Shown: positions 1,826 to 51,332 of the stretch, piece after piece
Layout: each line of letters begins with the position of its first letter
Position numbering within the stretch: the first letter of the stretch is position 1
Assembly: GCF_003231495.1 (NCBI RefSeq)
Contig: NZ_PQWO01000001.1
Location: 489,308 to 553,307, forward strand
DNA: 64,000 bases
DNA from: Acaryochloris thomasi RCC1774
GTDB lineage: Bacteria > Cyanobacteriota > Cyanobacteriia > Thermosynechococcales > Thermosynechococcaceae
Direction: 5' to 3'
Notes under the pieces: generated by a model
Database searches by the model: none
Told to the model about the DNA's origin: nothing
Seen by the model: only the letters and a program-made list of their open reading frames with translations
Position numbers and translations under genes: made by a program

Positions 1826-3922
1826 GTGCTCAGGAATCTCAGCATTCAGTCCAAGACGACTCTTATGTTGTTGGCCGTGAGCATCAGCTCGATTTTGGTG
1901 ATTGCCCTCATCGGTTATGAGAGCGGCAAAACAGCGCTCAGGCGCAGCATCTTTAATCAGCTCACTAGCCTACGAGAAGCTAAAATCCAGGAACTGCAAG
2001 ATCTCAGTCAACGGACGGATCGGCAGATTCACGTTCTGAGCATAAACCCTACACTGATTCAGGCTGCCCAGGCCTTTAAAGGCAGCTATAACGAGCTGAC
2101 GAAGGCATCCATCCCGCCTCAGTGGAATATAGCCATTAGCCAGTACTACGAAAAAGAGTTCATCCCCAAGCTCGCAGAAAATTCTCAGGGCGAACCCAAC
2201 GCTGCAACCTATCAACCCTCTACCCCACAGGATCGATATCTGCAGTACCAGTACACGATTAAGTCCTCTGACTTTGAGGAAAAGGTATTAATTGATAATC
2301 CCCAAGACGGCAGCACCTTTAGCAAGGTACATCAGCAATTCCATCCTTTTTTACGGGAATATGTTGAAACCTATGAGCTAGAAGACTTATTTATTATCGA
2401 TCCAGAGACAGGCAATGTGGTCTACACCACCTATAAGGGAACTGATTTTGCGACCAATCTGAAGACCGGCCCATTCTCCGAGAGCGTACTTGCAAAGGCC
2501 TTTCGTAAGGTGGTCGAAGAAGGTGAAGATCAGTTCGTTGCGTTTGTCGATTTTGAACCCTATCGCCCCTCTCATAATGATCCAGCCGCGATTCAGGCGA
2601 CGCCGGTTTTTAAGGACGGTAAAATGATTGCAGTGCTTGCTCTTCAGGCGTCTTCTGTGGAGTTGAATAACATTATGACCAGTCGCGCCCGCTGGAAGGA
2701 GGTAGGATTGGGCGATTCAGGTGAGACCTATGTTGTCGGGCCTGATTATTTTATGCGTTCTGACTCGCGCTTTTTGACAGAGGAGCCTGAAAAATATTTC
2801 GCAGCTTTGGAAACACAGGGAGTACCTAAGTCTGAAATTGAGCGTATTCGAGAGCTGGAATCAACGATCTTAAATCAGGAAGTTAAGACCGAAGCTGTAG
2901 AGGCGGCCCTGCAGGGTCAGCGAGGCACTCGCATCGTTGATGATTATCGCGGCATTCCGGTCCTTAGTGCCTATGGGCCACTTGAGGGGGATCATAACTG
3001 GGTCTTGCTGGCTGAAATTGACGAATCAGAAGCATTTGCCCCGATCCAAGCCTTCCAAAGGCGGGTCTTAATTACGACCGTTCTGATTGTTCTGGTCGTG
3101 ACGCTAGCGGCTTTGCTGCTTTCTCATCTGTTCGTGCGGCCCATCCGCCTCTTAAACCAGGGCTTTGATCGGTTCAGCAAGGGCAACACTGACGTCAAGG
3201 TCGAAATTGACTCTAAGGATGAGTTCCACGAGCTGGCGCAGTCTTTCAATCAAATGGTGCAGGTTCTGCAGAAAAAAACGCAGCAACTGCAGGAAACCAG
3301 TCAAGAAAACGAGGAATTATTGCTTAGCATCCTGCCGGGGCCGGTGGCTCAACGCATTAAGAAGGGAGAAGATAAGATTGCCGATAGCTTCCCCAACGTG
3401 ACGGTTCTGTTTGCTGACCTCCTCGGCTTCTCTGACTTCGCAGAAACCGTCTCTGCGGATGAGACGGTGGCTTTGCTCAATGAATTGGTGAGTGCCTTTG
3501 ATGAGGCGGCTGACCGGCACGGTGTTGAGAAAGTGAAGACCATTGGCAGTGGCTATATGGCCGTGAGCGGCCTCTCTGTCCCGAGGCTTGATCACACCAA
3601 GCGCGTTGTCGATTTTGCCACGGAAATGGTGCAGATCGTCCAGCGATTTAATCAAACCCGTCAAACTCAGTTGCAGGCCCGGATTGGCGTTAATTCTGGC
3701 CCCGTGGTCGCTGGAATCGTGGGACGCAGCAAGTTTATCTATGATTTATGGGGCGATACAGTCAACATCGCCCATCATATGCAGACGGAGGGCCAGGGCG
3801 ACTCGATTCAGGTCACGGCCAGCATTCATGATCAGCTCAAAGATTTTTATGAGTTCCGTCATGTCAACGAGACTTCTCTGGGCAAGAAAGAGGGATTAGA
3901 GACTTGGCTAATCAAGGTATAA
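1826..3922 (+). CDS. Membrane-bound class III adenylate/guanylate cyclase with periplasmic sensor and HAMP domain
   Basis: N-terminal TM segment, a large extracytoplasmic region, a second TM (VLITTVLIVLVVTLAALLL) and a HAMP-like linker. The C-terminal cyclase catalytic core is FADLLGFSDF...KTIGSGYMAVSGL...GVNSGPVVAGIVG...YDLWGDTVNIA. Confidence 0.85.
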   Translation: MLRNLSIQSKTTLMLLAVSISSILVIALIGYESGKTALRRSIFNQLTSLREAKIQELQDLSQRTDRQIHVLSINPTLIQAAQAFKGSYNELTKASIPPQWNIAISQYYEKEFIPKLAENSQGEPNAATYQPSTPQDRYLQYQYTIKSSDFEEKVLIDNPQDGSTFSKVHQQFHPFLREYVETYELEDLFIIDPETGNVVYTTYKGTDFATNLKTGPFSESVLAKAFRKVVEEGEDQFVAFVDFEPYRPSHNDPAAIQATPVFKDGKMIAVLALQASSVELNNIMTSRARWKEVGLGDSGETYVVGPDYFMRSDSRFLTEEPEKYFAALETQGVPKSEIERIRELESTILNQEVKTEAVEAALQGQRGTRIVDDYRGIPVLSAYGPLEGDHNWVLLAEIDESEAFAPIQAFQRRVLITTVLIVLVVTLAALLLSHLFVRPIRLLNQGFDRFSKGNTDVKVEIDSKDEFHELAQSFNQMVQVLQKKTQQLQETSQENEELLLSILPGPVAQRIKKGEDKIADSFPNVTVLFADLLGFSDFAETVSADETVALLNELVSAFDEAADRHGVEKVKTIGSGYMAVSGLSVPRLDHTKRVVDFATEMVQIVQRFNQTRQTQLQARIGVNSGPVVAGIVGRSKFIYDLWGDTVNIAHHMQTEGQGDSIQVTASIHDQLKDFYEFRHVNETSLGKKEGLETWLIKV

Positions 3923-3987
3923 CAAGCTAAATCGTCCATCTGCAATGCATTCGGAAGAATACTCTAAACCGATTCAAAACAAGAACA

Positions 3988-5445
3988 ATGATTGAAGCAA
4001 TTCTTCAGCAACCCTGGCTTCTGTGGAGCATTGGGTTGATGGTGGGTTTCCCGCTAGCGATGGTGGGTCTCAACGAGGGGATTTTAAAGCTGCAGCGGCA
4101 GCGCAAAGCGCTCGCTAATACGCTCAAGATTATCCGTAACTGGGTGATGCCGACCCTCGTCCTGTTCTTATTCGTCACTCAGGTGATGGGATTAGATCCC
4201 GATTTAACCCCCATTCGCCTGGTGCAGACGCTGCTGCTGTTAGCCACCATGAATATGGGCCTATCGTTCGTCAACATCATGCTGTTTGTGGAGGCGGGGT
4301 CCAACACATGGCAGGCTCAGGTGCCCAAGCTGCTGCGGGATCTGGTGCGCTTTTTCCTGATTTTGATGGGGACAGCCCTGGTCCTTTCTCTTGTCTGGAA
4401 GACCGATCTAGGGGGCTTGATCACGGCTTTAGGCGTCAGCTCGATCGTTATCGGTCTGGCCCTTCAGGACACGCTGGGCAACTTATTTTCTGGGATTGCG
4501 CTGCTGTTTGGTCGTCCCTTTAAGGTGGGGGACTGGCTGCAGCTTGGCGAGACGGTGGGTAAGGTCAATGAGGTGAACTGGCGAGCGGTGCATCTGATGA
4601 CGCGCGAACAGGAGATGCTGATTATTCCAAACTCTGTACTGGCGAAGGAAATCTTTAAAAACTACAATCAACCGATCAAAATGCATGTGGAACCCGTAGA
4701 TGTCGGTTTTTCATACAACGATCCGCCCAATAAGGTTAAGCGGGTGATGTTGGAGGTGGCACTGGCGACGAAGGGCGTGCTAGAGAAGCCTCCCCCTGTG
4801 ATTCAGACGATTAACTATAACGATTCTTCGATCGATTATCGGGTGCGATTATTCTTGGCTGACTATTCAAAAGTGCCGCAGATTCGCGATGAATTTATGA
4901 CAAGGGTTTGGTATGCCGCCAACCGCTATGGCTTGAATATTCCGTTCCCGATTCGGACTGTGTTTCATCAGCAAATGGAGCCTGCAAATCTCGAAACGGA
5001 ACGCACAAGGATGCTGGAGGAGTTGCGATCGCTTCCTTCCTTTGCCATAGTCGAGTCAGATACCTTGACTGATTTGCTGCCCGATCTGGAAGTCAAAAGC
5101 TTTGGTCAAGGAGAAACAATCATCCGCCAAGGCGATACTGGCGTTAAACTTCACCTCATTCTCAAAGGTCAAGTTAAGGTTAGCGTCAACAATCGGGGCC
5201 TTGAAACGGAAATCGATCGCTTTGCGCGGGGCGAATTTTTTGGCACCCTCACGCTCCTGAGCAACGAACCCACGCCTAACACTGTCATTGCCTTAGATGA
5301 TCTGGAAGTTGTGGTGTTCGAAACCGAGGCACTTCATATTATGTTGGCTCGTACGCCCCGCCTCGCCCAAGAAATGGGAGCTGTCATTGAAGCTCGTCGT
5401 AGCGCCATTGAGTTAGTCCGGCAGCCCTCATCCCGAGTGGGTTAA
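3988..5445 (+). CDS. MscS-family mechanosensitive channel fused to a C-terminal cyclic-nucleotide-binding domain (bCNG-type)
   Basis: TM helices, then the MscS core GDWLQLGETVGKVNEVNWRAVHLMTREQEMLIIPNS. The C-terminal cNMP-binding motifs are FGQGETIIRQGD...GEFFGTLTLL. Confidence 0.8.
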   Translation: MIEAILQQPWLLWSIGLMVGFPLAMVGLNEGILKLQRQRKALANTLKIIRNWVMPTLVLFLFVTQVMGLDPDLTPIRLVQTLLLLATMNMGLSFVNIMLFVEAGSNTWQAQVPKLLRDLVRFFLILMGTALVLSLVWKTDLGGLITALGVSSIVIGLALQDTLGNLFSGIALLFGRPFKVGDWLQLGETVGKVNEVNWRAVHLMTREQEMLIIPNSVLAKEIFKNYNQPIKMHVEPVDVGFSYNDPPNKVKRVMLEVALATKGVLEKPPPVIQTINYNDSSIDYRVRLFLADYSKVPQIRDEFMTRVWYAANRYGLNIPFPIRTVFHQQMEPANLETERTRMLEELRSLPSFAIVESDTLTDLLPDLEVKSFGQGETIIRQGDTGVKLHLILKGQVKVSVNNRGLETEIDRFARGEFFGTLTLLSNEPTPNTVIALDDLEVVVFETEALHIMLARTPRLAQEMGAVIEARRSAIELVRQPSSRVG

Positions 5446-6084
5446 CGAGCGTGATTTGACACATTACTCAACGACAACTCCATCCCTCTTGCTAAGAGCG
5501 TTCTAACAGATTGAATCGTCTCATTTGCGCGTCATCAACCTCACTCTATCTCGCAAACAAGAGGAGAAAAAGCTTGCCCGCGAGCCACCATGCCAGCAAT
5601 GTTGCCGTTGGGGAAGAGGGGAGTTATATTGGGGCAGGGTAGAAAAATAAATACCTTAATATATTTGACTCTAACCACTAAGGTATGAATCAATTGTTGA
5701 CGCTCGGGATGATATTAATCCGTTGAATGTCAGCTTTTTAGGGGGGAATGAGTTCTTTTTACATCAGGAAGCATCATTAGTGGTGTTGACTAACGTGTAA
5801 ATGAACACAGTTGCGATTCGGTATTGGCAGCAATATATTGCTGTAGGGGGAAAACAGTAGATCAATTTAGTTCTACTGGGTTTATTAATATCGCGGATCA
5901 AAACTCTTGTTTTGTTGTTGGATCTTCAAGGTCGGAAGCAGCACTGTAGAAAGCAAAAGCTTTGATGCTGTTTACGCGTGCTACGAAGCGTCATAAATAT
6001 CTAAATTTTAGAGTGCGGTCTTTCTGACAAGACTGCAAGAGATTATTCTGAGTATTTCCAGTTTTATAGTGATTTAAATCATCG

Positions 6085-6984
6085 ATGGTCGCAGACTCTA
6101 AGACTATGCTTGAGTCTAACGCTGCAACATTTGAGCTAAGCCGTTATTTTAATAGTCCGATGCTTCATCAACTAAAACATCAAGCTTTAGGAACAAAGGC
6201 AGGCACTTTGCCAAAGATCAACGTCATTGGTTCGCCCGTCACAGCTTTGCCCTTTGACGACCAGATGAAAGTGATTCTGCATTGGGCAAAGTCTCGCTTG
6301 AGTAAGACGGTCTGCGTTGCCAACACTCATATGCTGGTTGAAGCTTACCGACGCCCTAAATTTCGGGCAGTTTTAAGAAGATCTGATTTGGTCACACCGG
6401 ATGGTATGCCTCTGGTCTGGATGATGAAGGTGATGGGGGCGCTCAGGCAAAACCGGGTGGCGGGGATGGATATTTTCTTGTCTCTTTGTGAGGCAGCACC
6501 ACGTCAAGAGACCAGTATCTTTTTGTTAGGTTCTCAGTCCGCTGTACTTCGGCAGATGCAGATCAAGCTAGAGGATGAGTTCCCTGATTTGCAGATTGCG
6601 GGCATGGAACCTCTACCGTTTCGACCACTCACGACTCTAGAGGATGATGAGCTGATTCAACGCATCAATGCTAGTGGAGCAGGTCTCGTATTTTTGGCGC
6701 TCGGCTGTCCCAAACAAGAGGCGTGGATTGCTCAACATAAGGGCCGTATTCGGGCCGTCATGCTGGGCGTCGGCGGCGTATTTCCGGTCTATGCTGGCAT
6801 CCAAAAAAGAGCGCCCCGCTGGATTCGTGAGTCTGGCTTAGAGTGGCTATATCGCTTAGTGCAGGAGCCAACGCGCCTATGGAAGCGCTATGGAACAACG
6901 ATTCCTTTGTTTGTATACCTAGCACTGAAGCAGGCACTGCAGCATAAGGTTGCCAATGGATATCTAAAGCGATCGCAAGTCTAA
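6085..6984 (+). CDS. WecB/TagA/CpsF-family glycosyltransferase
   Basis: Family-typical segments VTPDGMPLVWMMKVMG, FLLGSQSAVL, LVFLALGCPKQEAWI and SGLEWLYRL. Confidence 0.8.
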   Translation: MVADSKTMLESNAATFELSRYFNSPMLHQLKHQALGTKAGTLPKINVIGSPVTALPFDDQMKVILHWAKSRLSKTVCVANTHMLVEAYRRPKFRAVLRRSDLVTPDGMPLVWMMKVMGALRQNRVAGMDIFLSLCEAAPRQETSIFLLGSQSAVLRQMQIKLEDEFPDLQIAGMEPLPFRPLTTLEDDELIQRINASGAGLVFLALGCPKQEAWIAQHKGRIRAVMLGVGGVFPVYAGIQKRAPRWIRESGLEWLYRLVQEPTRLWKRYGTTIPLFVYLALKQALQHKVANGYLKRSQV

Positions 6985-7148
6985 GTAACTCCGCAACTGC
7001 AATGCATCATTAACGGCACGGACCTAGGCTCAATTATTCCTAATTTAAATCTAAAATCTGGTCGATTTCAGCTCATATTCCGTAAATTCACTCTGAATGA
7101 ACGAGAAAGGTAGCGGTTAGGCTAACAAGGAATCATTTGGGTATTCAT

Positions 7149-7179
7149 CCCCTCATCAAGATTTTGATGAGGGGGTTTT
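7149..7179 (+). terminator. Rho-independent terminator-like hairpin
   Basis: cccctcatca-agatttt-tgatgaggggg followed by tttt. It sits between the wecB-like gene and the thrS-fragment boundary. Confidence 0.5.
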
Positions 7180-7202
7180 CTTGTATAGAGCCATCAGACA
7201 AT

Positions 7203-7436
7203 TTAAAACGCAGAATAGGTTGCGATCGCATCTCCCAATTTCTCCAGCACTTCAGCAATGGGCGTCGCTCCCAGCTCGCCTGACACACGGGTCCGAATAT
7301 TAAGGCTTTCGGCTTCAACTTCCTTATCACCAATCACCGACATCACCGGTATTTTCGCCTTCTCCGCATTGCGAATCTTTTTACCCAAGCGCTCACCGGA
7401 GGTATTCACCTGTGGTGTGTTTTGGTTGTTGCACAC
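7203..7436 (-). pseudogene. thrS: Orphan duplicate of the 3' end (last ~72 codons) of thrS
   Basis: Its translation ...NTSGERLGKKIRNAEKAKIPVMSVIGDKEVEAESLNIRTRVSGELGATPIAEVLEKLGDAIATYSAF is near-identical to the thrS C-terminus at 11118-11340. Nucleotide identity is about 80% by eye over ~225 bp. There is no upstream coding continuation. Confidence 0.8.
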
Positions 7437-8053
7437 AACTTGGAAGGTTGTTTTAAAAGCCTTGCCAAATATAGGCTTCAGAGTACAGACATTTTCATAG
7501 TTTCAACGAGAATGCTGGATTTCAGCCTTATGATTGAACGCTAACCTTCCAAGTCGTGTGTTGCAGTCTGCTCTCGTAGGAAGATTGTCAGTATGAGCCT
7601 GGTATTTCTTTCCCCTCAAGCTTGCAGTGCAGAACGATCAAGCTCACGTTGGTGCTGTGATGCCTGCTCAGGAGTTGCAAGAAAAAGCTTTTGGGATAGG
7701 CAAAAGCGATAACGGCTCATGGATGGCTTATTTGAGCAGGTGGTGGAAGCAGATTTCCAAGATCTGAAAGAATAACCGAAGCAGACAAGGAAGAAGCGCA
7801 TTGTCTGGGCTGAGTAAGGTTGCTAGAGTCAGCAGTATAAATTCGAGTAGTCCAAGAATAATGTCGAGCAGTAGGTAGAGCATGAGTCATCAGGATTCAA
7901 AACGACCCTTTGAGAATCGCTGATATGACGTAAACCCAGGGCTTCTGCACTGTACAACTTGTGTAAACGTACCGTAATAGTTTTGTACGAGATTAAGATA
8001 TCTGGCTTTGAGAACGTTAAATTAAGTCTATTGGTGCTGATTGAAACAAAATC

Positions 8054-10453
8054 ATGAACGATCTCAACCTTATCGCTACGCCTGAAGGAATTCGGCGGGC
8101 TGAGATTGCCCTGATAGAGATGCAGTTAACTAAGACCAAGTTGGCAGAGCGACTGGGATTAACTCGTCCACCAATAAGCAAGTTTTTCAATGGCAAGACG
8201 ATTAGAAATGAGAACTTTGTGACGATTTGCAAGACATTAGGGCTTGACTGGCGGATCGTGTGCGGTCTGCAACAGATTGAGACAGTTACTGATCAAGCAG
8301 CTCAAGCTCCTAAAGATGAAGATTCACTTGAGAAGATTATTCAGAATATTCGAGATGATATTCGGCCAAGAATCACAAGAAATCACGGGAAAATAAAAGT
8401 TTTAAATCTTGAAAAGCCTATTGACTTAGATGATATCTATATCAGCATTAATATCCTGGAAAAGGTAACTAGACGTAAACAACTAGAATTCATCGAAATA
8501 ATGAGGAGAAAGCCATACGACGAAGTCAATCTAACATACGAAAACGTCGAAGTTATGATTCGACAGCCAATATATCCTGATGATGTCGATCGTTTCAGTC
8601 GTGGCCCAATTAAGGAGAAACACGTACCAATTTTAGATGCAGTTAGAGATTACAAGAATCTATTAGTTCTGGGAAAGCCTGGATCTGGAAAAACAACTTT
8701 ACTGAAGTATCTTGCAGTTCAGTGTATTAGAGCAGGAATTAAATCTCAATGCATTCCCATACTCATAACTTTAAAAGAATTTTCTGAAGCCAAGGGTCAG
8801 CCTAGCTTATTAGAATATATACGCCAAGATTTTCTAGATAAAGAGAGAAAATATCTCGAAAAGCTTCTAATCAACGGGAATATATTGATTCTATTAGATG
8901 GATTAGATGAGGTTTATGTTTCTGATATATCTAGAGTGACGACAGAGATAAAGAAATTCTCAGAAAAATACATCGAGAATAGTTGCATAGTTACCTGCCG
9001 TATTGCAGCAGAAGAACACAACCTAAACTTTATAGATATAGAAATTGATGATTTGGAAGATCCAGAGATTAAAGCTTTTGCCACGAAGTGGTTTTGCAGG
9101 AATAAGAGCAAAATCAATGCAGACGATTTTCTGAAGCAATTAAAGAGTAACTCGCAAATTCTAGAGCTTGCGAAAACTCCCAAACTATTAGCATTGCTAT
9201 GCTTGATTTTTGAAGATCTAGGCAAATTCCCACATGATCGCTCAAGACTATACCGTGATGCTGTCAAAACCCTAGTTAAGCAAGAGAAAAGGGAAAAAAA
9301 TGGCAGCACACTTTATACAGAGCTTTCAATAGGACAGAAAGAAAAATTATTTAGCTATATTGCCTACGTATCATTCGTGGAAGAAAAATATTTTTTTGAC
9401 GTTGACTATGCAAAAAAAATAATTAAAAAATTCCTCATAGAATCATCTGTGCCAAATTTAGACAGACTAGATATCGATAGGTTTATGAATTATATCCAAG
9501 CTCAGAATGGGTTAATTGTAGAACGCGCACATGAAGTATATTCATTTTCCCATCTGACTTTTCATGAGTATTTTGTCTCAAGAGAAATCGTCGAAAGCAC
9601 TCACAGAGAATTATTATTACTTAATCTATCTCGAAAAATCTTAGAGAGTCGTTGGAAAGAAGTTATTTTGCTCGTTTCTGAAATGATCCCAGAGATAGAC
9701 ACTTTTTTACTGAATATTAAGCATGTAATTGATAACTCAATATCAGAGGATCAGGATATACAGAAGTTTGTTAAATGGATATATAAAAGAGCAAGTCATG
9801 AAAGTGATTTATATAAGAAAGCAGCGATCCGGGCTTTCTACTGGGGAACGGTAGGTTATGGTTGCTGTTACGCAGAAGAAATAGCTCATGCTTTTGAACT
9901 AAATTATTCTAGTTTTTCTAATTTAGACAGCATACTGATCTTCTTACTGCTTCGTTCAAAAAGTTTAGATACTCAGGGCTTGTGGGATCTTTGGGCTGAA
10001 ACTAACCTTTTCGATTATAACCGTGCTGCTTGGTCCAGGGAGTTAATTCAAGCTATTGATGTAGCCCTTTCACTTTTGTATGACCTTGATTATTCTGTAT
10101 GGAGTGCTTTGCAAAAACTTAGAGAAAATCTAACTGAATTTGAATCGTCAGATAGCGATACAGTATGGGATGAGTGGTGGCAAAGCAATGGTTCGAGTTG
10201 GGTATCTAAATTGAATGTAGCTCTGACTTCATATCTTGAAGCTGATATCTATGGAATTCATAGTGGTTTTAATAATGCCCAAACAAATTCCATAATTAAA
10301 TACTTGGAGGCTAATGCGATCCTTGTTGCTTGTTTAAAAAAATCGTCCGATACTAATTCTACAGTTCGAGAAGAAATTGAAAATACACTGCTGCTACCTA
10401 TTATCGAGATTAAAAGCTATAAATCATTCAAGAAGAAAGATATAAAACAGTAA
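8054..10453 (+). CDS. NACHT-domain NTPase (STAND family) with an N-terminal HTH; a bacterial NACHT-type antiphage candidate
   Basis: HTH-like N-terminus (LAERLGLTRPPISKFFNGKTIRNENFVTICKTLGLDW). Walker A LVLGKPGSGKTTLLKYLAVQC and Walker B ILILLDGLDEV are present. A long C-terminal region of ~400 aa is unassigned. The segment is AT-rich relative to its flanks. Confidence 0.75.
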   Translation: MNDLNLIATPEGIRRAEIALIEMQLTKTKLAERLGLTRPPISKFFNGKTIRNENFVTICKTLGLDWRIVCGLQQIETVTDQAAQAPKDEDSLEKIIQNIRDDIRPRITRNHGKIKVLNLEKPIDLDDIYISINILEKVTRRKQLEFIEIMRRKPYDEVNLTYENVEVMIRQPIYPDDVDRFSRGPIKEKHVPILDAVRDYKNLLVLGKPGSGKTTLLKYLAVQCIRAGIKSQCIPILITLKEFSEAKGQPSLLEYIRQDFLDKERKYLEKLLINGNILILLDGLDEVYVSDISRVTTEIKKFSEKYIENSCIVTCRIAAEEHNLNFIDIEIDDLEDPEIKAFATKWFCRNKSKINADDFLKQLKSNSQILELAKTPKLLALLCLIFEDLGKFPHDRSRLYRDAVKTLVKQEKREKNGSTLYTELSIGQKEKLFSYIAYVSFVEEKYFFDVDYAKKIIKKFLIESSVPNLDRLDIDRFMNYIQAQNGLIVERAHEVYSFSHLTFHEYFVSREIVESTHRELLLLNLSRKILESRWKEVILLVSEMIPEIDTFLLNIKHVIDNSISEDQDIQKFVKWIYKRASHESDLYKKAAIRAFYWGTVGYGCCYAEEIAHAFELNYSSFSNLDSILIFLLLRSKSLDTQGLWDLWAETNLFDYNRAAWSRELIQAIDVALSLLYDLDYSVWSALQKLRENLTEFESSDSDTVWDEWWQSNGSSWVSKLNVALTSYLEADIYGIHSGFNNAQTNSIIKYLEANAILVACLKKSSDTNSTVREEIENTLLLPIIEIKSYKSFKKKDIKQ

Positions 10454-10475
10454 GCTCATTAAAATCTATAAAATC

Positions 10476-10766
10476 ATGAGAAGAGAACAAGTCATTAACA
10501 TCCTGAAGCAATATGAACAGAATATCAAGGACTTCGGCATTAGATCTGTTTCTGTTTTCGGTTCGGTAGCCCGCGATGAAGCTCATCTAGATAGTGATAT
10601 TGATATCCTTGTTGACTTTTTAGAAGCACCTACCTTTGATCGCTATATGGATCTTAAGTTTTACCTCGAAGACTGCTTTGGACAAAGTGTTGACTTAGTG
10701 AGCTACAAAATGCTGAAGCCTCAAATTCGGCAAGCTGTCGAGAAGGAAGCCATTCGTGTCGCGTAG
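10476..10766 (+). CDS. mntA: MntA-type minimal nucleotidyltransferase (antitoxin-like)
   Basis: Nucleotidyltransferase signature FGSVARDEAHLDSDIDILVDF in a 96-aa protein. It overlaps the next gene by 11 bp. Confidence 0.75.
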   Translation: MRREQVINILKQYEQNIKDFGIRSVSVFGSVARDEAHLDSDIDILVDFLEAPTFDRYMDLKFYLEDCFGQSVDLVSYKMLKPQIRQAVEKEAIRVA

Positions 10767-11094
10767 TGTTCAGCTTTACCTTGAAGATATTTGCGCAAGT
10801 TGCACTAAAGTACAGCGCTACACTCTAAATATGACTTTTGAAGGCTTTATAGAAGACGAACGGACTTATGATGCAGTTGTTCGCAACTTACAAATTATCG
10901 GCGAAGCCGTCAAGAAAATTCCTCCTGATATTCGCGAACAGTATCCAACCGTGGAGTGGAGGAAGATTGCTGGTCTTCGCGATATTTTAGCCCATGCCTA
11001 CTTTAGTCTTGAAGACGAGACACTTTGGGATGTTGTGCTGAATAAAGTACCAGAACTATTCGAGCAAATTCAGCTCGTTATCCAAGAAAATTAA
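10756..11094 (+). CDS. hepT: HepT-type HEPN toxin (DUF86)
   Basis: 112 aa with the HEPN Rx4-6H-like motif RDILAHAYF. It is translationally coupled to the upstream nucleotidyltransferase. Confidence 0.7.
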   Translation: MSRSVQLYLEDICASCTKVQRYTLNMTFEGFIEDERTYDAVVRNLQIIGEAVKKIPPDIREQYPTVEWRKIAGLRDILAHAYFSLEDETLWDVVLNKVPELFEQIQLVIQEN

Positions 11095-11117
11095 ACAACA
11101 GATAATCTTGAGGTGAT

Positions 11118-12950
11118 CTAAAACGCCGAATAGGTTGAGATCGCATCCCCCAGTTTCTCCAGCACTTCAGCCATCGGCATCGCCCCTAACTCACCCGACA
11201 CTCGAGTCCGAATATTAAGGCTGTCGGCTTCCACCTCCTTGTCGCCAATCACCGACATCACCGGAATCTTCGCTTTCTCCGCATTACGGATCTTCTTGCC
11301 CAAGCGTTCGCCGGACGTATCCACCTGCGCTCGAATCCCCTGCGCCTGCATTTGCTCCACAGCTTTCTGAGCAAAGGGCAAGTGAACCTCACTCACCGTT
11401 AGCAAACGTACCTGCTCAGGCGCTAGCCACAGCGGAAAGTCCCCAGCATACTCTTCAATCAGAATGCCGATTAAACGCTCTAAAGAACCGAAAGGCGCAC
11501 GATGAATCATGATCGGACGGCTGCGATCGCCCTCTGCATTCACGTACTCCAGCTCAAACCGCTCCGGTAGGTTATAGTCCACCTGCACGGTACCGAGCTG
11601 CCACTCGCGATCCAAAACATCCTGGAAGATAAAGTCCAGCTTGGGGCCGTAGAAAGCGGCTTCACCAATGCCCTCAAAGTAATCCATCCCCAGCGTTTCT
11701 ACTGCGCGGCGGATCGCATTTTGAGACTTCTCCCAGGCTTCATCGGAGCCAATATATTTGTCTGACTCTGGATCTCGAAAGCTCAGTCGGGCCTTAAAGT
11801 TCTTAAGCTGCAGCTTATCGAACACCGACAGAATTAGATCAACGACTTTGAGAAATTCATCATCCAGCTGATCGGGCGTGACAAAGAGGTGCGAGTCATC
11901 AACGGTGAAGCCGCGCACTCTCGTGAGGCCGCCCAGCTCACCGGACTGCTCATAGCGATAGACCGTGCCGAATTCTGCCAGCCGAATCGGCAGATCTCGA
12001 TAGGAACGCAGTTCATTTTTATAGATTTGAATGTGGAATGGGCAGTTCATGGGCTTCATGACAAAGCCATGTTCTGAGGCGCGATCCTCGTCGTTCTCGC
12101 TCATGAGCGGGAACATATCTTCTTGATAGTTTTGCCAGTGACCCGAGATTTTGAACAGGTCCACGCGGGCAATATGGGGCGTCACCACCGGGAGGTAGCC
12201 GCGTTTTGTTTGTTCGCCCTTGAGAAAGTCTTCGAGTTGCGATCGCAACACAGTCCCCTTCGGAGTCCACAGCGGTAGTCCTGCCCCCACTAAATCAGAA
12301 AAGATAAACAGCCCTAGCTCTTTACCCACCTTGCGGTGATCGCGGCGGGCTGCTTCTTCTTTACGCCGCTTGTGCTCGGTTAACTGCTCAGGTGTTTCCC
12401 AAGCTGTGCCATAGATGCGCTGCAGTTGAGCCTTGGTTTCATCACCTCTCCAGTAGGCTCCCGCTACACTTTCGAGAGCGATCGCCCTTGGGTTGAGATC
12501 GCCTGTACTTTCCACATGGGGACCGGCACACAAATCCCACCACTGATCGCCCAGATGATAGAGCGTGATCGGTTCCTGTAAATCAGCGAGGATTTCTAGT
12601 TTGTAAGGTTCCTCTAGAGCCTTGATGCGGGTCTCAGCTTCTTCGCGGCTCACCTCTTCTCGAATCACCGGCAGCTTCTTCTTGATGATCTTCACCATCT
12701 CTTTCTTGATCGCCTTGAGATCTTTTTCGGTAAAGGCTGCAGAGGTATCGAAGTCGTAGTAAAAACCATTCTCGATCCAGGGGCCAATCGTCACCTGCGT
12801 CCCGGGGAACAGCTTTTGCACCGCCATCGCCATCACGTGCGAGGTCGTATGGCGGATCTTTTTGAGATCGTCTGACTCACTGGTGCGAGGCAGATGGATT
12901 TTTTCAGGCTGTTGCTCGGTTTGCTCTGCAGCGGACATGGGCGGCGTCAC
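11118..12950 (-). CDS. thrS: Threonyl-tRNA synthetase
   Basis: 610 aa with class II aaRS catalytic core motifs and an anticodon-binding C-terminus. Typical ThrRS segments are HRAPFGSLERLIGILIEEY and FELEYVNAEG. Confidence 0.95.
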   Translation of the reverse strand: MTPPMSAAEQTEQQPEKIHLPRTSESDDLKKIRHTTSHVMAMAVQKLFPGTQVTIGPWIENGFYYDFDTSAAFTEKDLKAIKKEMVKIIKKKLPVIREEVSREEAETRIKALEEPYKLEILADLQEPITLYHLGDQWWDLCAGPHVESTGDLNPRAIALESVAGAYWRGDETKAQLQRIYGTAWETPEQLTEHKRRKEEAARRDHRKVGKELGLFIFSDLVGAGLPLWTPKGTVLRSQLEDFLKGEQTKRGYLPVVTPHIARVDLFKISGHWQNYQEDMFPLMSENDEDRASEHGFVMKPMNCPFHIQIYKNELRSYRDLPIRLAEFGTVYRYEQSGELGGLTRVRGFTVDDSHLFVTPDQLDDEFLKVVDLILSVFDKLQLKNFKARLSFRDPESDKYIGSDEAWEKSQNAIRRAVETLGMDYFEGIGEAAFYGPKLDFIFQDVLDREWQLGTVQVDYNLPERFELEYVNAEGDRSRPIMIHRAPFGSLERLIGILIEEYAGDFPLWLAPEQVRLLTVSEVHLPFAQKAVEQMQAQGIRAQVDTSGERLGKKIRNAEKAKIPVMSVIGDKEVEADSLNIRTRVSGELGAMPMAEVLEKLGDAISTYSAF

Positions 12951-13255
12951 TTAGACCTATCTCAGGGAACCGTTCTATCTTATCGAACCTGCTGAGCTTT
13001 ATACCTACGAACATTTATCAGTACCTCCACCTGGGTGGAACAACTTAGAAAATTGTTTCAAGGCTGACGGGTCTCGCAGAGAATCATTGGCGTGTGTACA
13101 ACTCAGCTCAACACCTTTCCCTTACTAATCCTGTCTCGATAAAGCCGGTATTGGATAAGCAATGTCCACAGCACAAAATCTTAGCCATGCGTTGCATATC
13201 TTCTGAACAACCAGAGCAATGTGTACTCGTACGTGATCGTCAATGGGAGTTTCAT

Positions 13256-13837
13256 ATGCTTATTTCCACATTTGAACTACTGCTCAAATCTCAATTACCT
13301 GAACCTCCTAAGGGTGTTCCAATCGATCCAAAACTAGAAAAGCTAGGAAGAAAGATAATCCAGGGTTATTTTCTCACATTAGCAAATACGAATAGTTTCA
13401 AGATCGAGCTAGAAGTCATCTTTACTCTTAAACTGCCAAAAGGATTAGGAATCGAAAAATTTATCACCTTTGTCGATCCTGTTGGAAACAGCAAAGATAT
13501 GGCAGGAAGGATAGCTCCTATACAGAACGAAAAAGATCGCTATAAAACTGATAAGTTATCCCTAGCCTCGGGAGACACTATTCTTCTTATCTTGCAGCCT
13601 GATTTTATCAAGGATATGGATCTTCTTACTAAAGCTAACTTCGAGGCAAGAGGCTACGCAGAGCTGCGTCTTGCATCTGATAATACTCCTACAGGGAGGG
13701 CTGATGTTTTGGTCTCTGCCGAGCATCGAGGAACATTTTTCAGAAGTCTAGAAGACGGGAAAGATCTTGATATTGGTCAACTTTCCTACGGTTTAGCCGT
13801 GCAGAATAGTGGCCTTTTAACTCTCAAGACTCAGTAA
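13256..13837 (+). CDS. Hypothetical protein (start uncertain; the track ORF begins at 13094)
   Basis: ORF with no motif I recognise. AT-rich. The N-terminal 54 codons of the track ORF look non-coding. Confidence 0.3.
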   Translation: MLISTFELLLKSQLPEPPKGVPIDPKLEKLGRKIIQGYFLTLANTNSFKIELEVIFTLKLPKGLGIEKFITFVDPVGNSKDMAGRIAPIQNEKDRYKTDKLSLASGDTILLILQPDFIKDMDLLTKANFEARGYAELRLASDNTPTGRADVLVSAEHRGTFFRSLEDGKDLDIGQLSYGLAVQNSGLLTLKTQ

Positions 13838-37538: not shown

Positions 37539-40500
37539 ATGACCGCTTCTTTGAATGAGCCACGTTTATCGAGTACTCCTGGCGGTGACGCAGGTGTCGC
37601 CGCGCCAACGTTAGAGGCTACCCATTCTGAAGGGTTCGGCCATTGGCTGCAGCAACAGCAGCTCAGTCTAGCCTTTACGACCTACCAAACGAATCGCTTA
37701 TTTTGTCTGGGCACGACACAGGCAGGGAAAATGGCGCTACATGAACGCTTGTTTGATAAGCCAATGGGCCTGTTCGCCCAGGACAATCGCCTCTACATGA
37801 GTACCCGCTATCAAATATGGCAGCTCGATAATCTGCTAAGACCCGGAGAACTGCGTCAGGGTTGCGATCTCATCTACACCCCAAAACTAGCGCACACAAC
37901 CGGCGACCTCAACGTTCACGACGTGGTTATCGACGCATCCGGCGAACTTCTGTTTGTGAATACCGACTTCAACTGTTTAGCCCGTCTCAGCCCTGACTAT
38001 AGCTTTGTACCGCAATGGCGACCGCCCTTTATCTCGAAATGGGTCGCCGAAGATCGCTGTCACCTCAACGGCCTCGCCCTGCGAGAGGGCAAACCGGCCT
38101 ACATGACCGCCTGTAGCAGCACCAATACAGCCGCCAGTTGGCGTCACCACCGGGTTGACGGCGGCGTCGTGATGGATATCCAAGCCAACGAAGTGATCGC
38201 CACGGGCCTCTCAATGCCCCACTCGCCACGCTGGTATCGCGGCAAGCTCTGGTTGCTCAATTCAGGGACCGGTGAACTCGGTCACATCGACTTCGACAGC
38301 GGTGCCTTTGTCCCGCTCACCTTCTGCCCCGGCTTCGTGCGGGGAATGACCTTTTGCGGCAACGTCGCCGTGATCGGTCTATCAAAATTGAGGTCAAAAT
38401 CTTTCACCGGTCTAGCGCTGGAAAAACGACTAACGGCAGCGGGAGATCGCCCCCACTGTGGCTTGATGGTTGTTGACCTAGAGACCGGCAACGTTTTGCA
38501 TTGGCTGCGTTTAGAGGGAGTCGTTGAAGAGCTTTTTGATGTGGTGGTGCTACCCAACGTCCGCCAGCCGCAATCTCTAGGGTTCCAGTCTGATGAAATT
38601 GAGCGGCTAGTCACCTTCCCAGAGGCTGAAGGGATTGTGGTCACAAAACCCACGGTCAAGCGCCCGAGTTTGGCAGGCAAAGCCCCCGTTGCTGGCGTAC
38701 CCCGCACCGTCTGGGATGGGCAGTCAAGCTCCTCAACGGCTTCAGTCCCGTCGATCGCTGCCGCTTTAGACTCCCTTAAGTTTCAGCACGTTTACCATCT
38801 GACACCAGAAAATCTGGCAGACTACGACGATTTCACGTTTCCGCGTCTACGGCAGCGCTGGTCACAGCAGCCTCAGCGCGGCGAGATGCTCGGCGTATCA
38901 GCGTCGGTAGAGGGCGACATGGTGGCCTTCGGTGTGGCTGAGCTGCTGCCCGATCAGTCGGCTGAGGTGATCTCGCTTTGGGTGACCCCAGAGTACCGGC
39001 AACAAAGGATCGGACAGCGGTTGATGGCAATTCTGGAGCAGAAAGTCTGCCAAGAGGGCTGCACTAAACTGTTAATCGCCTACGAGGCCACTGCCCTTAC
39101 CCAGATAGAGCCTTTATTGAAAAACTTGGGCTGGCAAGCCCTCTCTCAGAACCACACCCAGCATAGATGGCACAAAAATTTCGCACCGCAGCTTGAGAAA
39201 GAGGCACCACACCCCTTTGAGCAGGGCAAAGCCTTTGCTAAGCAAGGAGATCTAGACGCAGCCATCGCTTGCTTTACTGAGGCCCTTCGCCAACGCCCCG
39301 ACCACCTCGCCGCCTATAACCAACTGGGCAATGCCTATCAGCAGTTGGGGCAAACAGAAGATGCGATCGCAACCTATCAAGCCCTCTTAGAACGCAATCC
39401 CAACGTCGCGCAGGCCCACGCCAACCTAGGGGCGATCTGGCAGATTCAGGGGAAAACGGGAGATGCGATCGCATCCTATCAAACCGCCATTGCCCTCAAG
39501 CCCGACTTAACCGTAGCCCATCTCAATCTAGCCAAGCTGCACGCAACAGCAGGCCAGCAAAAAAACGCTGCAGTGCATTATCAAGCGGCCCTTGCAGCCG
39601 ATCCCCAACAAGTAGAAGCCCACTACGGCCTTGCCAAGGTATCGCTGACTCAGGACCATTTAGAGCAGGCAAACGCCTGTTTTCGGCAGGTTTTAAAGCT
39701 CCAGCCGGAACACTCAGCCGCTCTATTAGAGCTAGGCTTTTTGTCTGAGGCCCAAGGGCAACTAGCGGTTGCTCGTGCCTGCTACCAGAAGCTATTTAAT
39801 ACCTGCCTAGAGTGGCAGCATTTAGCCGCTTACCAGCTTAGCTATGTGCGGCGGCAGCTTTGCAACTGGCAGCACGACGATGCGCGTATGACAGAGCTAC
39901 TGCAGCGCCTTGAGACGCACATTGCTCAGACCGACAGTCCTGCCCTCGCCCCCTTGAGCCTGAGCGTTTTCCCCGCATCGCCAGCATTGCATCGGGCCGT
40001 GAACGAACACCACGCAGCGCAGATTCAGCGACGCATGGCCGAGACTAAAGAACGATGTCATTTCCAGCATCCTCAGGGGCCTGTCGATAAACTGCGGATT
40101 GGCTACGTCTCGCCTGATTTCCGCAATCATCCGGTGGGCTGGCTGATGCAAGATTTGTTTCAGTACCACGACCGCGATCGCTTTGAAATCTTTGCCTATA
40201 GCCTCCGCCATGCCGAAGATTCAGTGCAGGCCAACATTGAGGCCGGGTGCGATCATTTTATCGACTGCTCCCAGCTATTGCCGGAAGAGAGTGCTCACCG
40301 CATTCATGCTGATGGCATTCATATTTTGATTGATCTAGCGGGTTACACCACCTATTCTCGACCTGAGATTTTTGCGCTGCGTCCCGCACCAATTCAGTGC
40401 AGCTATTTAGGCTATCCCGATACCACCGGTTCAGAGAGTATCGATTATCTGATCACCGATGAGTGGGTCGTGCCGCCTGCATTGGCAGCTCACTGTACTG

Positions 40501-41198
40501 AGCAGGTGGTCTACCTACCGCATCAGTTTGTGGTATCGCCAACATTCGCAGAGTCTTGTTTGCCAAAGGCCGAGATAGATCAAGAGGTACTAAAACAAGG
40601 GAATTTAAAGCAGACCCGCCAGGACTATGGTTTACCTGCAAAGGGGTTTGTGTTCTGTTGTTTTAATCTCCATCGCAAGATCGAACCGACGGTGTTTTCG
40701 GTGTGGATGAAGATTTTGCAGCAGGTACCAAACTCAGTGCTTTGGCTCTCAGATGGGCCAGACCCGGTCAAGGTGAATCTGCGTCAGGCCGCCCAGGCTC
40801 ATGGGGTTGCGGCAGAGCGATTGATTTTTGCCCCTCGGCTCCCCTTTGACGAATACTTAGCCCGCTATCAATTTGCTGATTTGTTTCTGGATACCTTCTC
40901 CTATGGAGCGGGTTCGACCGCAATCTGCGCGCTCTCTGCAGGAGTACCTTTGTTGACCCATCCAGGCGAGACCAATGCCTCACGGATGGGGGCCAGCATT
41001 TGCGCGGCAGCGGGCTTAGAAGACTTGCTGATTTGCGACAGCATATTGACCTACGAACAAAGGGCTGTGCATCTTGCAACTCACGCAGAAGAGATGGCGA
41101 CCCTACGGCAGAAGTTACGCGGCAATCGCAGCAATTTACCGCTGTTTCAACCCCAGCAATGGATCTCTCACTGGGAAGAAACGCTAGAGAAACTCTGA
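37539..41198 (+). CDS. Multidomain O-GlcNAc-transferase-like (GT41) protein: N-terminal beta-propeller-like domain (DUF4915/TIGR03032-like by recollection), then GNAT acetyltransferase, TPR repeats and a GT41 catalytic domain
   Basis: The GT41 region aligns strikingly with eukaryotic OGT as I recall it. Our LRIGYVSPDFRNHPVGWLMQ matches OGT [20 protein letters not shown]; our VPNSVLWL is identical; our PGETNASRMGAS matches PGETLASRVAAS. TPR repeats run (AAYNQLGNAYQQLGQTEDAIATYQ...) x~6. A GNAT core (Q/RxxGxG/A-like RIGQRLMAILEQ) lies at ~aa 450-520. The N-terminal ~380 aa have repeated strand-rich blades. Confidence 0.85.
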   Translation: MTASLNEPRLSSTPGGDAGVAAPTLEATHSEGFGHWLQQQQLSLAFTTYQTNRLFCLGTTQAGKMALHERLFDKPMGLFAQDNRLYMSTRYQIWQLDNLLRPGELRQGCDLIYTPKLAHTTGDLNVHDVVIDASGELLFVNTDFNCLARLSPDYSFVPQWRPPFISKWVAEDRCHLNGLALREGKPAYMTACSSTNTAASWRHHRVDGGVVMDIQANEVIATGLSMPHSPRWYRGKLWLLNSGTGELGHIDFDSGAFVPLTFCPGFVRGMTFCGNVAVIGLSKLRSKSFTGLALEKRLTAAGDRPHCGLMVVDLETGNVLHWLRLEGVVEELFDVVVLPNVRQPQSLGFQSDEIERLVTFPEAEGIVVTKPTVKRPSLAGKAPVAGVPRTVWDGQSSSSTASVPSIAAALDSLKFQHVYHLTPENLADYDDFTFPRLRQRWSQQPQRGEMLGVSASVEGDMVAFGVAELLPDQSAEVISLWVTPEYRQQRIGQRLMAILEQKVCQEGCTKLLIAYEATALTQIEPLLKNLGWQALSQNHTQHRWHKNFAPQLEKEAPHPFEQGKAFAKQGDLDAAIACFTEALRQRPDHLAAYNQLGNAYQQLGQTEDAIATYQALLERNPNVAQAHANLGAIWQIQGKTGDAIASYQTAIALKPDLTVAHLNLAKLHATAGQQKNAAVHYQAALAADPQQVEAHYGLAKVSLTQDHLEQANACFRQVLKLQPEHSAALLELGFLSEAQGQLAVARACYQKLFNTCLEWQHLAAYQLSYVRRQLCNWQHDDARMTELLQRLETHIAQTDSPALAPLSLSVFPASPALHRAVNEHHAAQIQRRMAETKERCHFQHPQGPVDKLRIGYVSPDFRNHPVGWLMQDLFQYHDRDRFEIFAYSLRHAEDSVQANIEAGCDHFIDCSQLLPEESAHRIHADGIHILIDLAGYTTYSRPEIFALRPAPIQCSYLGYPDTTGSESIDYLITDEWVVPPALAAHCTEQVVYLPHQFVVSPTFAESCLPKAEIDQEVLKQGNLKQTRQDYGLPAKGFVFCCFNLHRKIEPTVFSVWMKILQQVPNSVLWLSDGPDPVKVNLRQAAQAHGVAAERLIFAPRLPFDEYLARYQFADLFLDTFSYGAGSTAICALSAGVPLLTHPGETNASRMGASICAAAGLEDLLICDSILTYEQRAVHLATHAEEMATLRQKLRGNRSNLPLFQPQQWISHWEETLEKL

Positions 41199-50750: not shown

Positions 50751-51332
50751 CCCAACAAAATCGCTCAAGACTTGAACCATTGAGTCTATAAATAAAATCT
50801 AAATATACTTGCCGTTCCAGGACTAATAGCGATACTGTATCCTTAGCTATCTGTTCGATAGACGTATAAGGTGCTGGAACATGCTTTCAGTCCTGAATGT
50901 CATTGAGCAATAGGATTACCTTAAAGAAATTAAGCTTTAAGGGTTGAGGGTGTTATCTGAGACATTATCAGCATCAATGACTGGCATACAGTTGGGGGTA
51001 TGGCAATTAGTCATTGTCTTCAAATAGGGGTGTTACCAAGTTATTTAAGCTAATCCAACGTCCAAGTGGATAAGGCAGTTGAGCAGTCTCTCAATCTGCT
51101 TTTTACACAGATGGTTCAAGTTTTATAAGCATAGCTACACAGCAGGCAGTCTTATTCCTGCTGTCTTGACCAGGAGAACTTATTGCTGTTCTCCTCGGTT
51201 CCTTTATTCTTGTGCACTGACTTAAGGTTGATGCGCGTAGGCTCTGCTGTCCACAGGCTGAAAAGTATGGGGGTGAAGAGCCTACGCGGCAGAATTTCAT
51301 GCTGTGAGTTTTTTCTATCGAGGTCTAAGTTA

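Follow-up and report, generated by a model that had tools for sequence, protein, structure and literature searches.

How did a small cassette of toxin-antitoxin (TA) and defence genes come to lie directly behind thrS, the threonyl-tRNA synthetase (ThrRS) gene of the cyanobacterium Acaryochloris thomasi RCC1774, with a second, truncated copy of the end of thrS on its far side and no recombinase gene in between? The locus belongs to a 64-kb stretch of this genome, here called the window, and positions are those of the window unless a comparison locus (L-number) is named. An initial annotation of the sequence took the structure for the footprint of an integrative element that targets the 3' end of a housekeeping gene, brings its own replacement tail and has since lost its integrase. 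On the best reading, positions 7413-11117, together with the adjoining end of thrS (tail A, 11118-11327), are a horizontally acquired TA/defence islet without an integrase. Insertions of the same kind, also lacking an integrase, recur in other cyanobacteria, which suggests that the islet entered by ordinary recombination and not through an enzyme dedicated to a mobile element.

The insertion and its two thrS tails

The end of thrS is present twice, as a direct repeat derived from the target gene itself. Positions 7201-7412 align with 11116-11327 without gaps, collinearly and at an offset of 3915, with 85.4% identity over 212 bp. The collinearity had been recognised in the initial annotation, while its estimate of about 80% identity was too low. 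One edge of the similarity lies 2-3 nt past the stop codon and the other at 7412/11327. The annotated fragment of about 72 residues at 7203-7436 is real but shorter than described: because the similarity ends at 7412, the homologous piece consists of 69 codons and the stop codon (7203-7412), and the open reading frame (ORF) extends beyond it to 7436 by chance alone. Pfam recognizes the fragment as a C-terminal portion of HGTP_anticodon (E 9e-14). Exactly two copies of the thrS tail are found in the window by tblastn, and the longest identical block between them is 20 bp long and internal to the repeat.

Base composition changes between the two copies. The GC content is 0.32-0.39 in 400-bp windows from 8201 to 10800, compared with 0.50-0.55 in thrS; averaged over longer segments, it is 0.370 for the block from the NACHT gene to hepT, 0.534 for thrS and 0.490 for the whole window. 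Between 7413 and 8200, over the initial 0.8 kb of the interior, the shift toward AT is only mild, with a GC content of 0.42-0.45. The earlier description of the interior as markedly AT-richer than its surroundings is therefore accurate for 8.2-10.8 kb but not for this first part.

Sister lineages possess the empty site. No conserved synteny at the locus was found with A. marina, the closest species representative, but a protein search identified closer relatives with ThrRS sequences 93-97% identical, on contigs L087 and L088 (97%) and L090 (94%). In these contigs thrS and a convergent wecG gene are adjacent, separated by 249 bp in L087 and L088 and by 33 bp in L090, which is the contiguous arrangement that the initial annotation had envisaged for an unoccupied site. 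The gene wecG is thus the ancestral neighbor of thrS and borders the insertion site on the left. Behind the thrS stop codon of L087 there is a hairpin followed by GAGGGGATGAATACCCAAATGATTC, homologous to the window sequence beyond the fragment, and the same is true of L088. Positions 11610-11903 of L087 align continuously with 7414-7121 of the window at 81.5% identity, from the fragment into the intergenic region. On the side of tail A, the homology to L087 goes no further than 11115, which is 3 nt beyond the stop codon of thrS. The strong terminator hairpin previously noted outside the left copy, with its 13 pairs and T run, was confirmed and belongs to this ancestral intergenic region.

Since the sequence downstream of thrS in the sister lineages matches what follows the fragment, the fragment is a displaced resident tail, here called tail B. 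Tail B sits in the ancestral position and tail A is joined to foreign DNA, so the structure is a true insertion with an empty-site variant in sister lineages. The existence of this variant and the collinearity of the fragment are the two points on which the initial annotation would otherwise have fallen. Position marks tail B as the resident one, and on the best reading tail A arrived with the cargo.

The differences between the tails point to a foreign origin of one of them. Thirty of 207 coding positions differ, and 25 of the 30 differences are at third positions. The synonymous divergence (dS) is 0.81 and the nonsynonymous divergence (dN) is 0.033, giving a dN/dS of 0.04, and neither a stop codon nor a frameshift interrupts the fragment. 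The distance between the tails (about 15% of nucleotides) equals the distance from RCC1774 to its sister lineages, and both tails fall within that clade. Because the differences are almost purely synonymous, each tail must have belonged to a functional gene while the two diverged, in different lineages, and this means that one tail was imported from a related species and not duplicated in place. The donor was probably at the level of a sister species. This agrees with the earlier proposal that the insert supplied a replacement tail.

Duplication in place would also give two direct, collinear copies at a single locus. The thrS tail would have been copied at the time of insertion, for instance when replication slipped or when the target site was duplicated over a long stretch, and the dead copy would then have decayed. 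A dead copy should change at all codon positions, however, and the third-position bias and the frame that stays open over 69 codons at such a high dS do not fit this expectation. Tail pairs in three other genomes (L002, L026, and L068) show the same synonymous pattern. The dN/dS of 0.04 rules out duplication followed by decay, except with the added assumption that gene conversion or selection acted on the fragment, and this origin is extremely improbable.

Recombinase searches and similar islets elsewhere

No recombinase gene is recognizable in the islet. All of its ORFs belong to other families, and a six-frame Pfam search of the only non-coding stretch (7413-8053) for an integrase remnant gave no match at E<=1; the initial annotation had likewise seen no integrase. 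No Rfam family was found in 6900-13200, where a sub-threshold PyrG_leader match falls on the terminator hairpin only. Comparison of the spacer at 7413-8053 with plasmids and all comparison loci gave no match, except for a small ORF that has similarity at the protein level in L081 and L082.

Integrases were also sought behind thrS in other cyanobacteria. A phmmer search with an XerC-like seed covered 433 ORFs, taken from the 10 kb downstream of thrS in 80 species, and detected no tyrosine recombinase, and no integrase family is among the recurrent Pfam matches of 248 ORFs in the first 5 kb downstream. A single seed has limited sensitivity and the Pfam table covers families shared by at least 2-3 ORFs, so one or two isolated integrases could have escaped this census. 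No intact integrase-bearing element was found at thrS in 86 loci. As for the ordinary contents of this region, the commonest downstream neighbor of thrS in the first 5 kb of the 80 loci is a GHMP kinase gene, taken as thrB (18 of the 248 ORFs), and genes for the endonuclease-like DUF4058 (10 ORFs) and Uma2 (4 ORFs) families are also frequent.

A plasmid or phage was considered as the vehicle and rejected. The spacer has no plasmid match, and the matches of the cargo are weak: mntA-hepT matches three cyanobacterial plasmids at only 65-67%, and homologues of the NACHT protein occur on 49 cyanobacterial plasmids at only 29-39% identity. No cyanobacterial thrS tail was found in viral contigs.

Duplicated thrS tails are present in three more genomes among 80 species-representative thrS loci. 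They are an Acaryochloris metagenome-assembled genome (L002), Nostoc spongiaeforme (L026), and a Nostoc (L068); their cargoes and tail-pair dN/dS values are given in Table 1, together with an A. marina-like locus (L098). Two further islets are eroded, L014 being a version of the L026 event and A. marina MBIC11017 (L001) a version of the L002 event. In L014 the PIN cassette is kept with a truncated toxin gene, and the tail fragment (12647-12662) is reduced to its first 15 nt (GCGATCGCTTGGGTA). In L001 the first 264 nt of the L002 cassette remain at 11822-12085, followed by DNA resembling an insertion sequence. In L068 a gene for a NACHT-like P-loop NTPase on the minus strand (12686-13615), convergent with thrS, is truncated exactly at the end of the partial thrS tail fragment. 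The C terminus of ThrRS is altered in the same genome (…NFDN followed by LQIDVTSAD), and the two observations together indicate a further rearrangement at the same site.

Similar structures are found behind other genes. In Phormidesmis priestleyi (L004) a BrnT/BrnA pair has been inserted after an aminotransferase gene. An 85% repeat (4271-4365 and 5069-5164) comprises the last 60 nt of this gene and 35 nt downstream, and a sequence resembling the palindrome HIP1, GCGATCG, lies at the joint. This was the sole further gene-tail duplicate among 14 repeat pairs inspected in a self-comparison of about 1.6 Mb of flanking sequence; the inspected pairs are mostly intergenic, and other pairs at about 72% identity, which were not inspected, look like tandem paralogues.

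Islands of this kind are also present at sufS. The nearest homologues of the NACHT protein are encoded on Joint Genome Institute (JGI) metagenomic cyanobacterial contigs (L081-L086), and in contigs of this group the NACHT-MntA-HepT module belongs to an island that is rich in TA genes and located at the 3' end of sufS. The island also includes RES, UPF0175/DUF3368, Phd/ParE, ParD/ParE, YoeB, and DUF4351 genes. Fragments of the sufS tail form nested arrays: L081 has one fragment, 6.5 kb away, L083 has fragments in two places, and L084 has three copies. From their sequences, L083 and L084 look like the states before and after the insertion of a RES module.

The duplicated segments range from 39 to about 420 bp at these loci, compared with 212 bp in the window. 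Precomputed Pfam matches show no recombinase in the approximately nine analogous TA/defence islets at thrS, sufS, and the aminotransferase gene, some of which are only 0.7-0.9 kb long and hold a single TA pair. The breakpoints vary as well, and with no tyrosine recombinase detected downstream of thrS in 80 species, the comparison does not support the initial view of the locus as the footprint of an integrase-driven element.

Route of insertion

The favored mechanism is an integrase-independent insertion anchored by homology, either by single crossover of a circularized fragment or by homology-facilitated illegitimate recombination (HFIR), and the evidence gives it about an even chance of being correct. 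The incoming DNA, from a relative at the level of a sister species, would have carried the donor thrS 3' end followed directly by the cargo, and RecA-type homologous pairing within thrS would have anchored it. At the far end, HFIR would make an illegitimate joint of the microhomology type inside the resident thrS tail. Alternatively, the fragment would circularize first and then enter by a single Campbell-type crossover, with the same product. By both routes thrS would stay intact with the cargo right behind its stop codon, and the resident tail, truncated at its 5' end (7203-7412), would be pushed downstream to abut the ancestral terminator and wecG. The imported anchor allele that such an insertion requires is seen in the two divergent tails, with tail A at the cargo and tail B at the ancestral flank.

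Two experimental or natural systems resemble this process. In E. coli lacZ, single crossover of circular molecules carrying part of the locus produced duplications of 109-950 bp flanking the insert (PMC3240628), and the partial duplication of 212 bp found here is within that range. The lacZ work used laboratory conjugation and an engineered plasmid, and it involved no natural cassette, interspecies tail, or HIP1 (PMC3240628). Vibrio arrays of type VI secretion system (T6SS) effector and immunity genes and orphan toxin modules of the Rhs and contact-dependent inhibition (CDI) types have been proposed to grow by HFIR (PMC5361080). As in the cyanobacterial islets, a conserved upstream gene serves as the anchor, an incoming module shifts the older 3' end downstream, serial arrays are formed, and no recombinase is present (PMC5361080). 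In the Vibrio arrays, however, the anchor is within the toxin system and the displaced part is a toxin end with its immunity gene (PMC5361080), while in the present case an essential housekeeping gene with no relation to the toxins would be the anchor, and the cargo consists of self-contained TA/defence cassettes.

The positions of the joints vary among events in the same gene. The inner boundary in the window is 21 nt upstream of the position shared by L026 and L068, and that of L002 is 66 nt downstream of the shared position, so that three distinct inner boundaries fall within about 90 nt of thrS. Outcomes are imprecise, since the C terminus of ThrRS is altered in L068 and a toxin ORF reads into the fragment in L002. 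The HIP1 octamer (GCGATCGC) is found within 6 nt of six of 20 repeat boundaries, compared with 0.85 expected (P ~1e-4; boundaries were defined by blastn and the events are not all independent). An old sufS fragment of L084 ends where L083 carries HIP1. This palindrome is reported to promote both natural transformation and recombination in cyanobacteria (bioRxiv 10.1101/2024.09.10.611283). At the distal joint of the window, positions 7407-7417 form an imperfect palindrome (CACC-TGT-GGTG) on the border between tail B and the imported DNA, possibly by coincidence.

A site-specific element is possible, though less probable than homology-anchored insertion. A tyrosine or serine recombinase would have acted at a core in the thrS 3' end on an attP carrying a thrS-like tail, and the integrase would later have been deleted; otherwise the islet would be a non-autonomous cassette resembling a cis-mobilizable element (CIME) and mobilized in trans by an integrase from another part of the genome. 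The textbook signature of such elements, a direct repeat of the target 3' end plus a working replacement tail, is present, the cargo is AT-rich and of the defence type, and relatives have empty sites. The e14 element and phage 21 insert in the 3' end of the protein-coding gene icd of E. coli and bring a replacement end, with an integrase beside the att site and one fixed core. The thrS islet shares with them the direct repeat of a gene 3' end, the functional copy at the insert and the displaced copy at the far end, differences between copies mostly at silent sites, and empty sites in relatives. Unlike them, it has four genes and no recombinase, and boundaries vary among events in the same gene. 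L026 and L068 do share exactly the same inner boundary despite different cargo, as a fixed core would predict, but the three boundaries within thrS, the imprecise junctions of L068 and L002, and the presence of only six identical bases at the inner boundary of the window argue the other way. Neither an integrase nor a remnant was seen in about ten islets, or an integrase at the 86 thrS loci; several of the islets are TA pairs of 0.7-0.9 kb with no space for one; and the viral contigs searched yielded no thrS tail.

A second precedent for a site-specific origin comes from cyanobacteria themselves. Tycheposons of Prochlorococcus undergo repeated insertion at one site, with older arrivals pushed outward, partial target copies in between, and defence cargo (bioRxiv 10.1101/2020.12.28.424599), as is observed for the islets described here. 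They possess tyrosine recombinases and replication modules, target tRNA and tmRNA genes, and have att sites of about 40 nt (bioRxiv 10.1101/2020.12.28.424599), whereas the islets here target the tails of protein-coding genes, leave fragments of 39-420 bp, and have no recombinase.

Several considerations weigh against homology-anchored insertion. An integrase reaction and a homology-anchored event can give identical final products, and the tycheposons document that in cyanobacteria accretion driven by an integrase can proceed serially, leave partial copies of the target, and end in decay (bioRxiv 10.1101/2020.12.28.424599). Classical HFIR usually deletes recipient DNA rather than duplicating it (PMC3240628). 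The four independent events at thrS in 81 species, compared with about one at approximately 1,500 flanking genes (a number estimated from the 1.6 Mb of flanks), look like a site preference, which would be more naturally explained by a dedicated recombinase. The requirement for DNA uptake is backed by the general cyanobacterial literature and not by A. thomasi itself. At the joint in the window (7412/7413) only a 6-bp block, CAGGTG, is shared and HIP1 is not nearby, so the HIP1 argument draws entirely on other genomes; there, L081, L083, and L084 come from populations related to one another, and a single HIP1 position is common to L026 and L068. The 6-bp block is indistinguishable from tail homology, and later mutation could have blurred a longer core. 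Similarity to relatives and a three-way comparison of single-nucleotide differences were uninformative as to which tail is native, since the distances among all tails of the A. thomasi clade are much alike and the patterns are mosaic. Finally, no donor with tail A beside this cargo was found.

The tails' similar distance from the sister lineages also bears on a different possibility, that the complete structure (thrS-tail A-cargo-tail B-wecG) was formed in another lineage and entered RCC1774 by double-crossover homologous recombination in the flanking core genes, in which case neither tail need be native. Analogous islets are inherited or shared by sister species (L026 and L014; L002, L001, and L098). 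A study of Photorhabdus suggests homologous recombination at flanking core genes as the way in which TA islets lacking mobile-element genes spread (PMC13617665). Import of the whole structure is nevertheless improbable, since it merely relocates the founding duplication of the tail without explaining it, and no other genome was found with this islet at thrS. No mosaic was detected in thrS or its flanks by comparison with the empty-site relatives, which at 76-85% nucleotide identity are too diverged to give this comparison power. The Photorhabdus islets are also very small, consist of TA genes only, and are located between core genes with neither integrase nor transposase. That study points to palindromes like the res sites of Tn3-type elements and to decayed transposons, and the passages searched do not mention displaced copies of gene tails or imported gene ends (PMC13617665).

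The cargo genes and the meaning of the islet

The genes of the islet are of the TA and defence type. As initially annotated, an HTH-NACHT gene and an overlapping mntA/hepT pair are all on the plus strand, with mntA upstream of hepT and an overlap of 11 nt, and Pfam and PADLOC assign them to defence-type families, from which an antiphage or abortive-infection role would follow by homology. The NACHT protein matches NCH2 (NACHT C-terminal helical domain 2, a domain of the sensor type; 3.4e-20), NACHT (1.6e-13), and HTH_26/HTH_3 (about 1.5e-5) in Pfam, and PDC-S60 in PADLOC (6.5e-13). Its translation contains the Walker A motif GKPGSGKTT and DGLDE, which conforms to the NACHT signature D[GAS]hDE (bioRxiv 10.1101/2022.07.19.500537). 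An XRE-type helix-turn-helix (HTH) is the sole N-terminal domain found; a fused effector is typical of bacterial NACHT proteins but does not define them.

MntA matches Polbeta (2.7e-14) and NTP_transf_2 (3.3e-12) in Pfam and PDC-S09 in PADLOC (6e-32). In type VII TA systems a minimal nucleotidyltransferase (MNT) with a GSX10DXD motif is the antitoxin and a HEPN protein with an RX4HXY motif is the toxin, and MntA neutralizes HepT by AMPylation. Both motifs can be read in the translations here, as GSVARDEAHLDSDID in MntA and RDILAHAY in HepT. The cargo thus has the domains and the catalytic or signature motifs of the MntA/HepT systems and of bacterial NACHT proteins, the latter being very common in cyanobacteria, 58% of which encode them (bioRxiv 10.1101/2022.07.19.500537). 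In contrast to NACHT proteins with a fused HEPN domain, the HEPN ribonuclease is here encoded by a separate gene, two genes downstream of the NACHT gene, with its own MNT antitoxin.

The order of these genes is conserved in other hosts. In L081-L086 the nearest NACHT homologues (48% identity) are followed by a 96-aa MntA and a 112-aa HepT in the same order and with the same spacing. The orthologues of the window and L081 are 48% (NACHT), 77% (MntA), and 81% (HepT) identical, and the GC content of the block is 0.37 in both hosts. NACHT homologues at 36-37% identity lack the MntA/HepT pair, and the linkage is therefore a feature of a subclade. Upstream of the NACHT gene, a small divergent ORF of 51 aa without a Pfam family shares 59.5% identity over 42 aa (E 1.6e-11) with an ORF of 54 aa in the same position in L081 and L082, while L083-L086 have an unrelated hydrophobic ORF of 76 aa there. 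The 51-aa ORF, with its own terminator-like hairpin, is a real small gene and possibly a fourth member of the module. The small ORF, HTH-NACHT-NCH2, MntA, and HepT appear to be inherited together. An exact-protein look-up in the index searched found no identical NACHT protein, and a metagenome scan with a HepT alignment gave one partial locus only (L096), in a collection evidently without the JGI samples that hold the close relatives.

The likeliest role of the cargo would be phage defence or addiction. The NACHT protein would sense or regulate by means of a nucleotide switch, and HepT would be a ribonuclease toxin restrained by MntA. HepT may be the effector of this NACHT protein, because HEPN ribonucleases are found as fused effector domains in other bacterial NACHT proteins (bioRxiv 10.1101/2022.07.19.500537).

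Table 1. Coordinates of features at the thrS locus of the window and of insertions at comparison loci
Locus	Feature	Position	Strand	Basis or remark
Window	wecG/TagA/CpsF-family glycosyltransferase gene	6085-6984	+	Pfam Glyco_tran_WecG, E 2.8e-62; blastn synteny
Window	Intrinsic terminator hairpin in ancestral thrS-wecG intergenic region	7147-7176	+ (T run on wecG strand)	13-pair stem, then TTTTCTTG
Window	Displaced resident thrS tail (tail B)	7203-7412	-	Last 69 codons and stop; no 5' part of the gene
Window	Distal 315 bp of imported DNA, no recognizable gene or RNA	7413-7727	.	Pfam, Rfam, comparison with plasmids and loci
Window	Terminator-like hairpin just downstream of small ORF	7687-7707	-	Hairpin prediction
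Window	Small hydrophobic ORF, 51 aa	7728-7883	-	Divergent from NACHT gene; similarity to ORF of L081/L082
Window	HTH(XRE)-NACHT-NCH2 STAND NTPase, 799 aa, C1752_00470	8054-10453	+	Pfam, PADLOC; 100% match to NCBI record
Window	MntA-type minimal nucleotidyltransferase, 96 aa, putative antitoxin partner of HepT	10476-10766	+	Pfam, PADLOC
Window	Putative HepT-type HEPN ribonuclease toxin, 112 aa	10756-11094	+	Pfam HepT-like, 3.5e-30
Window	Proximal junction, 23 bp, from cargo to thrS stop codon	11095-11117	.	Read from sequence
Window	thrS tail in service (tail A), joined directly to cargo	11118-11327	-	Repeat alignment
Window	Intact thrS	11118-12950	-	Pfam tRNA_SAD, tRNA-synt_2b, HGTP_anticodon (all three ThrRS domains)
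L002, Acaryochloris	thrS with UPF0175/DUF3368 cargo, about 0.9 kb			Tail-pair dN/dS 0.08
L026, Nostoc spongiaeforme	thrS with PIN pair, about 0.9 kb			Tail-pair dN/dS 0.06
L068, Nostoc	thrS with XisH/XisI, about 0.9 kb			Tail-pair dN/dS 0.00
L098, A. marina-like	thrS with 3.7-kb islet ending in UPF0175/DUF3368 pair			Frameshifted tail fragment
L081	sufS tail fragment	5181-5245		Matches 11758-11822
L083	sufS tail fragments	3170-3278, 3972-4010		Compared with sufS, 10302-11552
L084	sufS tail fragments	3955-4012, 5140-5558, 7783-7867

The insertion has also changed the transcriptional setting of thrS. The hepT stop codon is 23 nt from the thrS stop codon and the two genes are convergent. No terminator-like site was found in the 23-bp junction between them, and the ancestral thrS terminator is now 3.9 kb away; transcription is therefore likely to read through, in antisense, between thrS and the toxin operon. 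The thrS ORF, read from a GTG at 12950, encodes 610 aa and is identical to the RCC1774 protein, for which the NCBI model has 606 aa and would start at the ATG at 12938.

Further genes and repeats were noted elsewhere in the window. An AT-rich ORF of 247 aa without a Pfam family (13094-13837, GC about 0.39-0.42) is divergent from thrS, and the region between thrS and the HAD and response-regulator genes is unlike that of the empty-site relative L087. A 1219-aa DUF4915-GNAT-TPR-GT41 gene at 37539-41198 has its 5' DUF4915 part copied 4.4 kb downstream (42278-42877, 78% identical), a duplicate of a gene head and not of a gene tail. Dispersed repeats at 34.7-35.6 kb and 43.0-43.9 kb are 72% identical and 8 kb apart. 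Tandem paralogues at 51183-53768 and 54703-57045 have animal-haem-peroxidase domains fused to RTX calcium-binding repeats; their ends are about 75% identical in DNA, and a tRNA-Arg(CCT) gene (57208-57283) comes after them.

Parts of this picture have precedents. TA islets that are small and have no mobility genes have been described before, and how they enter chromosomes is under debate (PMC13617665). Duplication of a gene tail is already known for integrase elements. The literature searched, whose coverage is incomplete, contains no account of cyanobacterial TA/defence cassettes that lack an integrase and recurrently lie between an imported tail marked by purifying selection and a displaced tail, and none of HIP1 enrichment at such joints.

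Taken together, the observations could reflect a recombinase-independent route in cyanobacteria by which one TA or defence cassette after another is taken up at the 3' ends of conserved housekeeping genes, such as thrS, sufS, and aminotransferase genes, through an exchange of gene tails, a proposal that is put forward tentatively. A foreign gene end would be the anchor, HIP1 would often be the illegitimate or circle-closing joint, and the displaced tail would remain as a datable scar, with the A. thomasi islet as one instance. Its cargo of a small membrane peptide, HTH-NACHT, MntA, and HepT would then be a single four-gene defence system, in which the HEPN ribonuclease is the effector of the NACHT sensor.

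Displaced tails with almost purely synonymous divergence are a direct and datable record of DNA that arrived with its own flanking gene end from a related species. If the insertions are independent of a recombinase, conserved housekeeping genes themselves offer defence genes a place to land in bacteria capable of natural transformation. If an integrase was responsible after all, the islet is an ordinary decayed island. HIP1 is an abundant palindrome of cyanobacteria, and what it does has been disputed for decades; its enrichment at the joints would give it a concrete consequence in evolution. The conserved module of NACHT, MntA, and HepT is a candidate for a defence system of several genes, in a phylum in which few such systems have been put to the test.

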